The notes below the pieces were generated by a model, which was not told the origin of the DNA, made no database searches, and saw only the letters and a program-made list of their open reading frames with translations. Below are positions 3,725 to 9,839 of a stretch of 11,635 bases of DNA, piece after piece. This DNA is from a virus. Lineage: Duplodnaviria; Heunggongvirae; Uroviricota; Caudoviricetes. Position 1 is the first letter of the stretch; each line of letters opens with the position of its first letter. The position numbers and the translations under genes were made by a program. The stretch lies in IMG/VR virus record IMGVR_UViG_2639763139_000004; one strand, given 5' to 3'.

Positions 3725-4411
3725 TCACTCCTTCTCTTCTTTACCGTAGTGGAGTTGACCAATTTTGATAAGAGGGCGTCCCTGAGATTTGCGGTGTAGA
3801 TTGGTATCGCGCAGAGAATACACACAGCCACAATATTCCTGCTGATAGAATTTTTCGCGCTTGCTGATTTCAATCATACGGGACGAGCCGCCCTGCTTGC
3901 GCCAGTTATAATCCCAGTACACCATGCCCGGATAATGCGCGACGGCTCGCCGCCCACAGTCGTTAACCTGCTGCATATTTTTCCAGCGTGAAATGCCCAG
4001 TGAACTGCTGATCACACTGAAACCATTTTCAGCGGCGTACAGCGCTGTCCGCTCAAAACGCATGTCAAAACACATGGTGCAACGGATCCCTCGTTCGGGC
4101 TCCCATTCCATTCCTTTGGCTCGTTCAAACCAGTTGTCTGTGTCGTAATCAGCATCAATAAACGGCACGCCGTGTTGTTCAGCAAAGCGAATATTCTCAT
4201 CCTTACGAATTAAATACTCTTTCTGAGGATGAATGTTCGGGTTGTAGAAAAAGATGGTGTAGTCGATTCCCGAGGCCTGAAGCGCCTCCATCACCTCACC
4301 GGAACATGGAGCACAGCAAGAGTGCAGTAGTAGTTTGTTTGCCCCGTTTGGGAGCTCCAATTTGGGCCGTTTGAAATCAGCAACTGTCATAAATATGTTT
4401 ATTGAGGTCAT
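3725..4411 (-). CDS. queH: QueH-like epoxyqueuosine reductase (DUF208), 228 aa
   Basis: [14 protein letters not shown] motif near the N-terminus plus further Cys clusters (CTMC, CGCV). ATG at 4409-4411; alternative ATG at 4388-4390; neither has a strong RBS. Confidence 0.65.
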
Positions 4412-4972: not shown

Positions 4973-5395
4973 TCACAGTATCGCCTCCTGAAAATTACCC
5001 TGATAGAAAGCCAGTACACGCTGCATAGCTTCGCTCTTCCGGCACTCGCGACAGATTATATTCAGGCGCCTGTCGTAGCGGCGTATTTCTCCGTCAGGTA
5101 ATGACCAGATAAGGTCCGGATCAACAACAACCGGTTTCCTCACCTTTACTCTCGAGAGTTTTTTGCGGGCGCTTTGCCAGTCCTTGCGAGCCTGTTCAGA
5201 CGGGAATAAGCCGTAGCCAGAATTATATACATCACCACTTGCGACCAGTTCTATGCATAAGCGACCGACAGACGCACGACTGATACCTGTTTCATCGGAC
5301 AACTGCCGAATCGTGACCCGACCGTCCTGATGCACGAGTTCCACAATTCGCGTCTTCAGTTCTTCCCGCTGTTCGGGAGTAAAAGGTTTCGCCAT
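4973..5395 (-). CDS. Hypothetical winged-helix DNA-binding protein with C-terminal CxxC, 140 aa
   Basis: ATG 5393-5395 preceded by GGAGG at 5-nt spacing. HTH-like segment TIRQLSDETGISRASVGRL; CRECRK near the C-terminus. No family recognised. Confidence 0.6.
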   Translation of the reverse strand: MAKPFTPEQREELKTRIVELVHQDGRVTIRQLSDETGISRASVGRLCIELVASGDVYNSGYGLFPSEQARKDWQSARKKLSRVKVRKPVVVDPDLIWSLPDGEIRRYDRRLNIICRECRKSEAMQRVLAFYQGNFQEAIL

Positions 5396-5409: not shown

Positions 5410-6156
5410 CTACTTAACAACCCTCGAATGGCTAACATTCGGACGCCAGCTCTCCCAGTTAAAATTCACCCAGCGCCCGCCGTTCATGACCATGCGATCC
5501 ATCACCCGCTCGCCGAGCAATGTTTTCATCACCTCATAGTTCAGGTTTGTCAGCATCCCCACGCTGCGCATCGACGCTGTCCGGCGATCAACAATCTGGT
5601 GCAGCACCACCTGCTCGTTTTTCGTCTCGCGCTGAATGCCAATTTCATCAAGAACCAGCAGATCCACTTCGCACAGCTCCCGCAAAAATTTTTCGCCTGA
5701 CTGCCCGTCGTCATAGCTGGCGTGCAGGGCGCTCATAACATCAGCCACGGTAACCACAATCACTGTCTGACCGTCTTTCAGCAGGCGATTCCCGATAGCT
5801 GCCGCTAAGTGATTCTACCCGGTATCAGGTTTTCCGCTGAACGCAAAATTTGTACACCCGGTCATCAGTTCATCGGCGATGGATTTCGCCTGGCTTAACG
5901 CGTATCGCTGGCCGTCGTTCTGCACCTGGTAATTCGCAAACGAGCATTTACGGTGCAACGGCTGGATGCCTGAGCGATTCAGAATTTTTTCCACCCGCAA
6001 CTGGCGATTCAGGCGGTTGATCTCCTCGCTACGTTTCTGGCCTTCAGCAAGTTGCCACTCGCGCCACTCCGCTACCGTTCTGAATGGGGCGGTTACATGT
6101 GGCGGGGTCAGTCGGCGGATGCGTTCCAGAACGCCGCCTGTCGCAATATTTTTCAT
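5410..6156 (-). pseudogene. DnaC-like helicase loader interrupted by an in-frame amber codon at the Walker A lysine
   Basis: Two listed ORFs (5815-6156 and 5410-5763) are in the same frame. Translation reads ...FAFSGKPDTG-TAG-NHLAAAIGNRLL...DLLVLDEIG..., with TAG at 5815-5817 where the P-loop Lys is expected. Walker B is present downstream. Confidence 0.7.
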
Positions 6157-6547
6157 GGTCCGTTACCCCCTGAAGCCTGGCGGGATCGCACTGTCCGGCA
6201 ACGAGACGGTGTTAACCTGTCGGAGCAACGTCTCAGGCCGAACACCTTTCGGCGCGAACAGACCCTGGTATTCATTGGCGATGCTGTGTCGAATCACCTG
6301 CTCAGGTGTAAAACCCTGCTGACGGAATTTTTCCAGTTCCCGTATCGCCCTGCTCCGTTCGAATCGGTTTTCGCAATGCCTGTCTGAACCGGACCCACTC
6401 ATGCCAGAGTGTTTCCGGCAACCAATCGGGCAGCTCAATAGCCTCCGGCTCGAATTTTTTAGACGCTCGTTTTTGGCGAGGGGGATTTAGGGGGAGATCA
6501 GTATTTAGATCTTCCTCTTCCACTGGTAACGCTTTTTGATCCGTTTG

Positions 6548-6567
6548 TGTAACGCTGGCAGCGTTAC
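6548..6567. repeat. Palindrome TGTAACGC-N5-GCGTTAC, copy 1
   Basis: GTAACGCTG-G-CAGCGTTAC is a perfect 19-bp dyad inside the replisome-organizer gene. Confidence 0.6.
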
Positions 6568-6754
6568 CTTTTCGTTTCAGTTCGCGTATTTTTGTTACTC
6601 GCTCGTTTGTAACCGCCCGTTTTTTAGAGCTTTTTCCGTTATGACGTTCAAAGTTAGGTAGAGAAAGCCCACCGTCATTTTCGACCAGCCATCCAACCTG
6701 AATTAACGTATCAGCAAAACCAGACATAAAAGTGATGCGATCTATTGCACTTTT

Positions 6755-6775
6755 TGTAACGCCGCGAGCGTTACA
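6755..6775. repeat. Palindrome TGTAACGC-N5-GCGTTACA, copy 2
   Basis: TGTAACGC cgcga GCGTTACA, perfect 8-bp arms, inside the replisome-organizer gene. Confidence 0.6.
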
Positions 6776-6946
6776 ATCTGCATTACCGTCTATCATTTGT
6801 TGATCCGCCCATGCCCAGAAGCGAATAACCTTCCCTAATGCGGCATCTGGATCAATATTCAGAATCTCAGCAAGCCTGAATATTTCCGGCTTATCCGGCG
6901 TAATAACCTCGAGCTTTATCCAGTTTGAAGCCATTTGTTTTCACCT

Positions 6947-6967
6947 TGTAACGCTCGCAGCGTTACA
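6947..6967. repeat. Palindrome TGTAACGC-N5-GCGTTACA, copy 3
   Basis: TGTAACGC tcgca GCGTTACA, perfect 8-bp arms, 13 bp upstream of the replisome-organizer start codon. Confidence 0.6.
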
Positions 6968-7011
6968 TTTAACTGATACCGAACAAAACAATCCGGCACG
7001 ATTAATTTCAA

Positions 7012-7434
7012 TCAATGCACTACGACAGAATCGCCGGGCGACCCACCACCGCTGAAATGTGCTTTCCGGTAAACGGCCTGGACAGCATCATCATGCGCAT
7101 CAATTGCCGTACTCAACGCTTCCTGCGCCGCCAGTAATGCACGGCGTTCCAGGGTATCGAAGATACAGAGTCGGTGACGCAGCTCACGCGGAAGAATTGC
7201 CAGAACCGCAGGGATCAGTTTCTGAATTTTTTCCCTTTGCGCTTTCGTTTCACCTTTCAACCAACGGTGATAGATATTCTGCTGATTGTTCCAGTCCTTG
7301 CCTGGTACCAGAGACAATTCGCCGCCCCCCTGCCGCAGATATTCTTCAGTAATTGCGTTAGCGACCCACGCCTGCCCTTTTTCGGCTGCCAGGGCTAACA
7401 GCACTGATTCGATGTGCTCATGCCTGATTTTCAT
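7012..7434 (-). CDS. YdaT-like (CII-position) prophage protein, 140 aa
   Basis: ATG 7432-7434 overlapping the end of the Cro-like gene. Sequence MKIRHEHIESVLLALAAEKGQAWVANAI... matches the Rac YdaT family from memory. Occupies the cII position. Confidence 0.7.
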   Translation of the reverse strand: MKIRHEHIESVLLALAAEKGQAWVANAITEEYLRQGGGELSLVPGKDWNNQQNIYHRWLKGETKAQREKIQKLIPAVLAILPRELRHRLCIFDTLERRALLAAQEALSTAIDAHDDAVQAVYRKAHFSGGGSPGDSVVVH

Positions 7435-7645
7435 GAATCACCTTCCCAGGTCGTTTTGCCTTACGATATTCGTCATAAACTTTGGGGTCGTACTGAAGTT
7501 CCCCGCCAGATGCCTCTTGCAGGCGCATCGCGCGACCTTCAGGAACCAGTTCCCCCCATGCAGCAATGCTTGCCAGCCTAACTCCTGCGGCATTGGCAAG
7601 CTTTGTTTTGCTGCCAAAAAACGCTATAGCATCAATTTTCAACAT
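7418..7645 (-). CDS. dicC: DicC/YdaS-like Cro-type regulator, 75 aa
   Basis: ATG 7643-7645 preceded by TAAGGAG. Divergent from the repressor gene. Sequence pattern matches DicC from memory. Confidence 0.75.
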   Translation of the reverse strand: MLKIDAIAFFGSKTKLANAAGVRLASIAAWGELVPEGRAMRLQEASGGELQYDPKVYDEYRKAKRPGKVIHENQA

Positions 7646-7653
7646 ATCGAGCT

Positions 7654-7713
7654 CCTTAGATTTTCCTAAGGAAACTAGACCGTAGAGAAACCTAAGTCAA
7701 GAAAAATTAGAAT
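7654..7713. promoter_or_regulatory. Right-operator-like region with two copies of a 14-bp operator motif and divergent promoters
   Basis: Palindrome CCTTAGATTTTCCTAAGG at 7654-7671 and minus-strand CTTAGGTTTCTCTA at 7683-7696. TAGAAT at 7708-7713 lies 8 nt before the repressor ATG, which has no SD. Confidence 0.5.
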
Positions 7714-7721
7714 TCCCTAAT

Positions 7722-8129
7722 ATGAAAAACGAAACCTTCGGTGCTCGCCTCTTACATAGGCGTAAAAAATTAAAACTGTCTCAGGCCGCATTAGGTAAGC
7801 TGGTCAAAGTGGCTCACGTAACAATTTCTCAATGGGAAAGAGATGAAACACAGCCGGCGGGGAAAAGATTATTCGCACTGAGCCAAGCGCTTCAGTGCTC
7901 ACCGACTTGGCTTCTTTTTGGGGATGAAGATAAACAACCAGGCGAACCGATCCCGGATAATCAGCCAGCCATTCTGACAGAAGATCAAAAAGAGTTACTT
8001 CAACTGTTCGACGCACTGCCTGAGTCAGAGCAAAAGGCCCTGTTGTCAGAGATGCGTGCTCGAGTTGAAAATTTCAACAAACTTTTTGAAGAACTACTCA
8101 AAGCTCGCAAAAGAAGCGCAAACAAATAA
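7722..8129 (+). CDS. dicA: DicA-like HTH repressor, 135 aa, no S24 peptidase domain
   Basis: ATG 7722, TAA 8127-8129. HTH segment LSQAALGKLVKVAHVTISQWERDETQP and tail LFALSQALQCSPTWLLFGDEDKQ...NFNKLFEELLKAR match DicA from memory. Confidence 0.85.
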   Translation: MKNETFGARLLHRRKKLKLSQAALGKLVKVAHVTISQWERDETQPAGKRLFALSQALQCSPTWLLFGDEDKQPGEPIPDNQPAILTEDQKELLQLFDALPESEQKALLSEMRARVENFNKLFEELLKARKRSANK

Positions 8130-8933: not shown

Positions 8934-9839
8934 CTATATTTCCAGACATCTGTTATCACTTAACCCATTACAAGCCCGCTGCCGCAGATATTCCCGTGGC
9001 GAGCGATAACCCAGCGCACTATGCGGATGCCATTCGTTATAATGCTCGAACGCCTCTGCAAGGTTCTTTGCTGCCGTTAACCCGTCTGGTTTGGGCATGA
9101 TACTGATGTAGTCACGCTTTATCGTTTTCACGAAGCTCTCTGCTATTCCGTTACTCTCCGGACTCCGCACCGCCGTGTTCTTCGGTTCAAGTCCCAACAT
9201 CCGGGCGAACTGGCGTGTTTCATTAGCCCGGTAGCATGAACCATTATCCGTCAGCCACTCCACTGGAGACGACGGAAGATCGTTGCCGAAGCGGCGTTCC
9301 ACCGCTCCCAGCATGACGTCCTGTACTGTTTCACTGTTGAAGCCGCCGGTAGTCACCGCCCAGTGCAGTGCCTCACGATCACAGCAGTCCAGCGCGAACG
9401 TGACACGCAGTCTCTCTCCGTTATCACAGCAGAACTCGAACCCGTCAGAGCACCATCGCTGATTGCTTTCTTTCACGGCCACTCTGCCTGTATGTGCCCG
9501 TTTCGATGGCGGTACAGCAGGTTTTCGCTCAAGCAACAGCGCATTCTGGCGCATGAGCCGGTAAACACGTTTGGCATTGATCGCAGGCATACCATCAAGT
9601 TCTGCCTGTCTGCGAAGCAGCGCCCATACCCGACGATAACCATACGTGGGCAGCTCTCCGATAACATGGTGTATACGGAGAAGCACATCCGTATCATCAG
9701 TGTGACGACTGCGGCGGCCATCCATCCAGTCATCGGTTCGTCTGAGAATGACGTGCAACTGCGCACGCGACACCCGGAGACAACGGCTGACTAAGCTTAC
9801 TCCCCATCCCCGGGCAATAAGGGCGCGTGCGCTATCCAC
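8934..9839 (-). CDS. insD: IS2 transposase OrfB (InsD), made as an OrfAB fusion by -1 frameshifting
   Basis: 301-aa frame with integrase-core motifs. Slippery heptamer A AAA AAG at 9839-9845 (minus) sits at the InsC/InsD overlap. Confidence 0.9.

Follow-up and report, generated by a model that had tools for sequence, protein, structure and literature searches.

IMG/VR record IMGVR_UViG_2639763139_000004 (Caudoviricetes), which in its whole length of 11,635 nucleotides is called the window here, contains the early-right operon of a Rac-like lambdoid prophage, reading on the minus strand. The subject of this analysis is the replication initiator gene of that operon, in and before which the palindrome (T/G)GTAACGC-N5-GCGTTAC(A/C) occurs in three copies within the 11.6 kb. 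What is seen as palindromes is part of a larger arrangement of 7-bp boxes at 12-bp spacing, which are grouped into three clusters: one is situated about 33 bp upstream of the ATG, a second at codons 50-60, and a third at codons 116-137. The relevant features are the following:

6302-6934, minus strand: initiator gene, matching phrog_2509 ("replication initiation protein")
6947-6967, minus strand: site 3, the upstream palindrome, with the coding strand reading TGTAACGC-TGCGA-GCGTTACA
6755-6786, minus strand: site-2 cluster, made up of a perfect palindrome at 6755-6775 (codons C54-T60) and a degenerate third box
6591-6616, minus strand: two sequences that resemble degenerate boxes, GAGTAAC at codons R112-T114 and GCGGTTACA at codons A107-T109
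6525-6568, minus strand: site-1 cluster, the proposed origin core, made up of a palindrome at 6548-6568 (codons G123-T129) and a further box
6480-6524, minus strand: proposed unwinding region, adjoining the last box
6510-6521, plus strand: short polypurine tract GGAAGAGGAAGA, 12 nt
6500-6509: AT-rich segment TCTAAATACT, 10 nt
6480-6495: C5-TAAAT-C5 element

A scan of the window with the pattern TGTAACGC-N5-GCGTTACA, in which up to three mismatches were tolerated, gave three matches versus a mean of 0.03 in 200 shuffles, none of which reached three. The three spaced palindromes that an earlier note had pointed out from the letters of the sequence are, therefore, real, and their coordinates were correct within one base. 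Perfect 8-bp arms, claimed there for every copy, are found at 6755-6775 and 6947-6967 but not in the first copy, TGTAACGCTGGCAGCGTTACC, which ends at 6568 and has one mismatch (last base C; right arm 7/8); what all three copies have without a mismatch is the 7-bp core GTAACGC/GCGTTAC. The centres of the palindromes are 207 and 192 bp apart. Two copies lie within the initiator open reading frame (ORF) and one in the 77-nt gap between this ORF and the ydaT-like gene (7012-7434), just as had been described; the end of the latter copy, site 3, is 13 nt upstream of the initiator ATG (6934), with the AGGTGA ribosome-binding site immediately next to it. In the site-2 cluster, the degenerate box GCATTACC at 6779-6786 (codons G50-A52) corresponds to an exact GCGTTACC in relatives. 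The half-site that had been suspected near 6608 corresponds to a box into which one base has been inserted (TGTAACCGC); a better additional box of site 1 is GGTAACGC at 6525-6532, whose reading frame (K-A-L-P) differs from that of the palindrome. At +334, an exact GCGTTAC box is present in several relatives (Yersinia, Serratia, Rouxiella, and Pantoea); in the window, GAGTAAC and GCGGTTACA, the latter being the suspected half-site, are both degenerate and their status as boxes is uncertain. For the distal cluster, three exact or near-exact boxes and two degenerate ones are counted in the window. A terminator-like call at 6549-6567 was rejected; it is on the plus strand, antisense to the gene, and is merely the palindrome followed by a T-rich stretch.

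In Pfam and NCBIfam, no family was found for residues 1-210 of the initiator at E≤0.01, and a match to phrog_678 ("O-like") is restricted to residues 82-234, which comprise the linker and the C-terminal part. The N-terminal domain (N-domain; approximately codons 1-96) is of the winged-helix type, with a helix-turn-helix followed by a β-hairpin wing. It is connected by a linker, which extends to about codon 160 and is disordered at residues 97-160 in the AlphaFold2 model, to a C-terminal domain (C-domain), where the family profile matches the C-terminal domain of DnaT (PDB 6aep, E=2.4e-5; also 9zbt and 2ru8). According to the same model, site 2 is encoded in a surface loop (residues 49-60) with a predicted local distance difference test score below 50 at residues 54-57, and the site-1 cluster (codons 116-137) is located inside the disordered linker. 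Junctions of domain swaps are found directly behind this cluster.

For an assessment of conservation, 39 loci were collected by a protein-pattern search with one genome per species, selected by protein similarity alone; they originate from Enterobacterales, Hahella, Burkholderiales (Burkholderia, Paraburkholderia), Verrucomicrobiota, Planctomycetota, and Ignavibacteriae. In most of them, (x)GTAACGC-N5-GCGTTAC(x) is present twice, at +147/+159 and at +345 to +411, with conserved arms and freely varying spacers; the search of related prophages for the motif, which had been recommended as a check, has thereby returned it at the same positions in relatives from several phyla. Each distal cluster consists of two to six boxes including at least one GTAACGC-N5-GCGTTAC dyad; in relatives, one to four GTAACGC boxes in direct orientation and 12-bp register are followed by N5 and GCGTTAC and then, after another 4-5 or 16 nt, by a second GCGTTAC. 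Direct and inverted orientations are both used, as exemplified by L011 (367> 379> 391> 403< 426<) and, upstream of the gene, by L017 (-56> -44> -32< -10>). Site 3 is kept in relatives of 89-99% identity, and a palindrome at -32 to -45, sometimes extended to three or four boxes, is found in relatives from Mixta, Erwinia, Yersinia, Serratia, Winslowiella, and Pantoea. The flanks are at chance level, with about 16 exact boxes in about 150 kb. From Enterobacterales to Planctomycetota, the box is nearly unchanged.

The reverse test was a scan of viral contigs for the exact palindrome GTAACGC-N5-GCGTTAC, which yielded at least 120 contigs. At least 101 of the 120 listed encode this N-domain and have the palindrome at -32, +148/160, or +343-424. 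About 19 of the 120 are without an N-domain match; among the 17 of these that were inspected, the palindrome is mostly a single occurrence in an unrelated context, and one contig breaks off within a copy that belongs to the family. The association of the box architecture with this N-domain is exclusive.

In a group of initiators of the Klebsiella, Pantoea, and Enterobacter type (L018, L020, and proteins P0080-P0107), an 11-residue insertion is present in the site-2 loop (SNADSVTDSEQ..KSNA), which brings additional GTAACGC/GCGTTAC boxes; the loop appears to grow by addition of boxes.

The two in-gene palindromes of the window share one reading frame and encode C-N-A-R-G-V-T and G-N-A-A-S-V-T. 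In the family, the corresponding peptide is (C/G/S)-N-A-x-(G/S)-V-T, the residues of which are conserved, N-A and V-T being kept down to about 30% protein identity. Codon usage at these positions was determined for 31 distinct genes, again selected by protein, with the following result:

S58: AGC in 17 of 17, expected fraction 0.23
V59: GTT in 22 of 23, expected fraction 0.38
G50: GGT in 19 of 25, expected fraction 0.34
S127: AGC in 14 of 15, expected fraction 0.23
A135: GCG in 13 of 13, expected fraction 0.27
L136: TTA in 20 of 20, expected fraction 0.19
P137: CCA in 16 of 19, expected fraction 0.24

Mixed codons are used for the nearby conserved residues D44, D65, K104, and V113. The residue before N-A alternates between Cys, Gly, and Ser, all with xGT codons, and the third distal box is read in a different frame (A-L-P). 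Synonymous resampling of the 31 genes left 15.8 ± 3.6 boxes (maximum 27) versus 107 observed, and 0.42 palindromes (maximum 3) versus 28 observed; in the rest of the same ORFs, there are 2 boxes versus 1.3 expected. The constraint acts on the DNA and not on the peptide.

Where the box deviates from GTAACGC, the deviation is found at both clusters of the genome in question:

L030: GTCACGC, at +148 and +364
L039: GTCAC(A/G)C, at +65 and in the distal cluster
L036: GTCCGC..GCGGAC, at +65 and +347
L023: the identical 19-mer CTAACGGTCCCAGCGTTAG, at +154 and +352

The basic stretch K104-V113 that follows the wing (SKKRALTNxRV) reads RAxATxRK or RAQDADRK in the clades with GTCAC or GTCCG boxes. This stretch is a candidate for determining specificity, the independent clades being too few for a claim.

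The last distal box of the family runs into C(A/T)AGAGAAGAGAAGAGAAGA, a polypurine tract of 20-25 nt, followed by AT-rich DNA. In 61 of 86 distinct relatives, C(A/T)AGA and a purine run of at least 10 nt come after the last box. In most lineages, the tract is (GAGAA)n, usually (GAGAA)4-5, and in enterics it is (GAGGAA)n. Because it is translated as EEEEE or EKRREEK depending on the lineage, with fixed Glu codons, the tract is considered a DNA-level element. A candidate for the AT-rich unwinding element, for which a search near the palindromes had been proposed, is present, and the distinction from "clustered iterons" drawn in the earlier note is not supported, since the distal site is itself a cluster of boxes at 12-bp phasing that is followed by the polypurine tract and AT-rich DNA.

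Two further observations concern the proposed unwinding region. Three GATC sites (6496, 6508, and 6538) lie within the 46 bp from 6496 to 6541, two of them inside that region, in a window where GATC is otherwise under-represented (31 sites versus 42.6 expected); they recur at similar places in enteric relatives and in K-12 Rac, and Dam/SeqA control is possible. Past the AT-rich segment, a C5-6..C5-6 element is found (6480-6495 in the window; approximately +440 to +470 in L052, L110, L071, and others), which encodes "PPLNPP", is often followed by G5-6 in the manner of a hairpin (ACCCCCC..GGGGGGT), and is also present in K-12 Rac.

Taken together, the boxes are probably the cognate sites of the winged-helix N-domain of the initiator, with the distal cluster as the origin core and the other two clusters in an auxiliary role. 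As had been supposed from the location of the palindromes, they belong to the replication module and, on comparative evidence, would best be read as initiator sites of an in-gene origin. Initiator monomers or dimers would occupy the boxes via the winged helix. The distal cluster together with the polypurine/AT-rich segment would constitute the core at which the bound initiator opens the duplex, and the DnaT-like C-domain would recruit the DnaC-like loader and the host helicase to the opened DNA. The two upstream clusters, at distances of about 200 and 400 bp, may be joined to the core by initiator-initiator contacts, either by looping or by wrapping. The upstream dyad beside the ribosome-binding site may, in addition, restrict read-through into the initiator gene, which would amount to autoregulation.

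Several points weigh against this assignment, which is drawn from sequence comparison. The replication genes of the window are defective and its polypurine tract is short. The upstream cluster exists only where there is an intergenic gap, that is, mostly in Enterobacterales, and is not found where the gene directly adjoins the one upstream. The distance of about 200 bp, to which attention had been drawn for its regularity, is a conserved feature of the in-gene clusters of the family, but it ranges from 192 to 264 bp between dyads (modes 207, 216, and 219) and is neither strictly regular nor helically phased; this range would permit looping or wrapping. By simple consensus match, which covers the sigma-70 type only, no promoter of that type was detected in 6300-7800 on either strand, for which reason an operator role of the upstream site is weak and speculative. 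The codon and resampling statistics overstate independence, as the sequences are related; the contrast of box positions with other positions in the same genes is internal to the data. Each palindrome would also fold into an RNA stem of 8-10 bp with -12.6 to -16.8 kcal/mol, calculated for local segments. Finally, no description of the boxes or of an origin for this initiator family was found in the literature covered, with many subscription papers lying outside that coverage.

A more far-reaching proposal, which we put forward only tentatively and consider rather doubtful, is that of a distinct and very widespread class of phage origins. In this class, boxes in surface-loop and linker codons of the initiator's own gene would dictate the N-A..V-T peptides, and firing would need the initiator at two to three clusters about 200 bp apart, with looping or wrapping to open the near-universal (GAGAA)n element.

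The genes surrounding the initiator gene in the window are the following:

7722-8129, plus strand: DicA-like repressor
7418-7645: Cro/YdaS-like protein
7012-7434, minus strand: YdaT/CII-like protein
6163-6438, minus strand: out-of-frame remainder of the initiator, with the DnaT-like C-terminal domain ending in ...PDSAIPPGFRG
5815-6156 and 5410-5763: DnaC-like loader, split
4973-5395: DUF977 protein

The initiator ORF is truncated by a frame-shifting 11-bp deletion near 6350, intact relatives having 260-262 amino acids, and the proposed unwinding region is 6 bp shorter than in relatives. The DnaC-like loader is present as two ORFs (113 and 117 amino acids), from which the Walker A segment, corresponding to residues 114-132 in intact YdaV, is missing. 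Because the initiator and the loader genes are both broken, the replication module of the window is a relic, though with intact palindromes. To the right of the repressor region, the prophage is interrupted by an ORF for an IS3-family transposase (8934-9839, 301 amino acids), and a gene for a QueH-like epoxyqueuosine reductase (3725-4411) is situated among the late-early genes, as it is in the closest relative, L001.

Given this neighbourhood, the boxes could be operators by which another phage regulator (DicA-like, Cro/YdaS-like, YdaT/CII-like, or DUF977) or a host factor controls the replication genes. Several helix-turn-helix proteins are encoded nearby, and site 3 occupies the intergenic gap just before the initiator gene. 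We consider this explanation unlikely, and the "different regulator" that had been suggested as an alternative is not borne out. Across phyla, the boxes follow the initiator N-domain in the absence of DicA-like, YdaT-like, and DUF977 neighbours. Neighbouring genes differ wholly among the loci that keep the boxes, the downstream gene being DnaC-like, DnaB-like, a primase-helicase, or of unknown type. A host factor would have to be common to Enterobacterales through Planctomycetota and yet track the variants of the N-domain. YdaT was rejected as the binder; its operator is the inverted repeat TTGATT-N6-AATCAA (PMC11879457), which differs from the boxes in sequence and spacing and lies elsewhere, namely, as GTGATTCATGAAAATCAG at 7424-7441 (minus strand) over the ydaT start codon, its known position, where it agrees with the published box in the form ATGATT-N6-AATCAA.

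The Rac prophage of E. coli K-12, a natural domain swap, provides the counterpart, which speaks for the N-domain and against YdaT as the binder. Its YdaT and YdaV are 94% and 93% identical to those of the window, and the identity of the YdaU C-domain is 81%, but the N-domain of K-12 YdaU is of the DUF1376 type and unrelated to that of the window initiator, and neither GTAACGC nor GCGTTAC occurs within the 6 kb of K-12 Rac examined. Instead, K-12 ydaU has a repeat of its own, (C)AGATGTTCAAACA, which is found five times in linker-coding DNA from +352 to +460, together with an inverted copy; the region that encodes the N-domain contains near-identical 12-mers as well, at +143 and +228 (L163, 2760-3160). 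Homology between the window and K-12 resumes at a common AGATCTAAA..GATC-C5-7-TAAAT-C5-7 element; by this comparison, the exchanged module, therefore, begins at the ydaT stop codon, ends with the repeat region, and holds all three palindromes.

Alternatively, the palindromes could act as RNA hairpins in the early-right transcript, controlling translation or stability of the initiator mRNA. The stems mentioned above would be compatible with such a role, as would the position of site 3, which ends right at the ribosome-binding site, and the fact that some changes in the arms are symmetric so that pairing is retained. We regard it as quite unlikely, however, since the sequence and not just the pairing is conserved across phyla, and about half of the exact boxes lie outside exact palindromes, as partnerless direct repeats at 12-bp phasing. 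Separate hairpins would not require the identical changes that variant boxes show at the two clusters of a genome. In addition, the site-3 fold reaches a z-score of only -0.95, and no Rfam match at E≤1 was obtained in 6200-7200 on either strand.

A third possibility is that the boxes are short homology patches that serve recombination, that is, the modular exchange of N-domain, linker, and C-domain, and have no role in replication. Hybrid initiators with junctions at or near box clusters do occur (P0112, P0040, P0065, and P0120). P0112 has foreign first 50 residues that are joined exactly at the site-2 box; the 376-amino acid variants, with an insert of about 115 residues right after the site-1/polypurine region, and K-12 YdaU change over immediately behind site 1 and the polypurine tract. 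Conserved DNA may provide crossover points. As the purpose of the boxes, recombination is nevertheless very unlikely, because patches would need neither dyad symmetry nor 12-bp phasing nor multiple copies per site, and would not co-vary between the clusters of one genome; junctions at conserved DNA are the expected side effect of any conserved element. That the palindromes are a by-product of a needed peptide repeat (N-A-x-x-V-T), for which the conservation of N-A and V-T at low protein identity could be quoted, or a product of chance, is hardly credible in view of the same palindrome in non-coding DNA before the ATG, the box in a different reading frame, the roughly 7-fold (boxes) and 65-fold (palindromes) depletion upon synonymous resampling, the location of the peptides in a low-confidence loop and a disordered linker, and a chance expectation of 0.03.

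Assignment of the boxes to the initiator would provide a concrete candidate origin and recognition sequence for an uncharacterised initiator family. This family is represented in Rac-like prophages of E. coli and Shigella, in phages such as epsilon15, TL-2011b, Xanthomonas CP2, and Xylella Usme, and also in prophages of at least five phyla. It would be a clear case in which a DNA-binding site constrains the amino acids of the very protein by which it is most likely bound. Based on the signature of boxes and (GAGAA)n, origins could be annotated in thousands of phage genomes, and the signature could also help in building replicons. Novelty appears to lie in the initiator family, in the 7-bp box with its 12-bp phasing, in the near-universal polypurine element, in the conserved outlying clusters, and in the breadth of conservation. 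As the outlying clusters are paralleled in the unrelated ydaU gene of K-12, the question arises if a distant auxiliary site is general for in-gene phage origins.

Among known systems, the iteron plasmids (F with RepE, pPS10 with RepA, R6K with π) use Rep monomers on iterons and Rep dimers on an inverted-repeat operator. Common features are a winged-helix initiator and one short box that is used in direct arrays as well as in inverted pairs, with one pair upstream of the gene. In the family described here, in contrast, inverted pairs also occur in the origin core, the gene lies within a longer operon, no promoter was detected at the upstream palindrome, and there is no sequence homology to those Rep proteins. 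The ydaU gene of K-12 Rac, which we take to be the oriJ region of Rac, shares with the window the operon position, the C-domain, the downstream AT-rich C7-TAAAT-C7 element, and the principle of linker-DNA repeats with outlying copies in the N-domain coding region, whereas N-domain and repeat are both unrelated; the repeat region of K-12 ydaU may be the oriJ core.

Location of an origin inside the initiator gene is a classical principle, as in the λ ori inside gene O, where repeats are followed by a strand-asymmetric, easily melted segment in linker-coding DNA. The family differs from λ in that its N-domain is not Pfam Phage_rep_O and matches no Pfam family, its C-domain is DnaT-like, and its sites are 7-mers in mixed orientation at 12-bp phasing instead of four 19-bp iterons. 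Two additional clusters, for which to our knowledge no equivalent has been described in λ, are located about 200 and 400 bp upstream, within the N-domain coding region and before the ATG, respectively. In both systems, the origin, or its candidate, is situated in its own initiator gene, in the flexible segment between the DNA-binding N-domain and the loader-recruiting C-domain; the repeats are dyad-symmetric, the last of them is followed by a purine-asymmetric, AT-rich segment, and N-domain and sites are exchanged together as one module.

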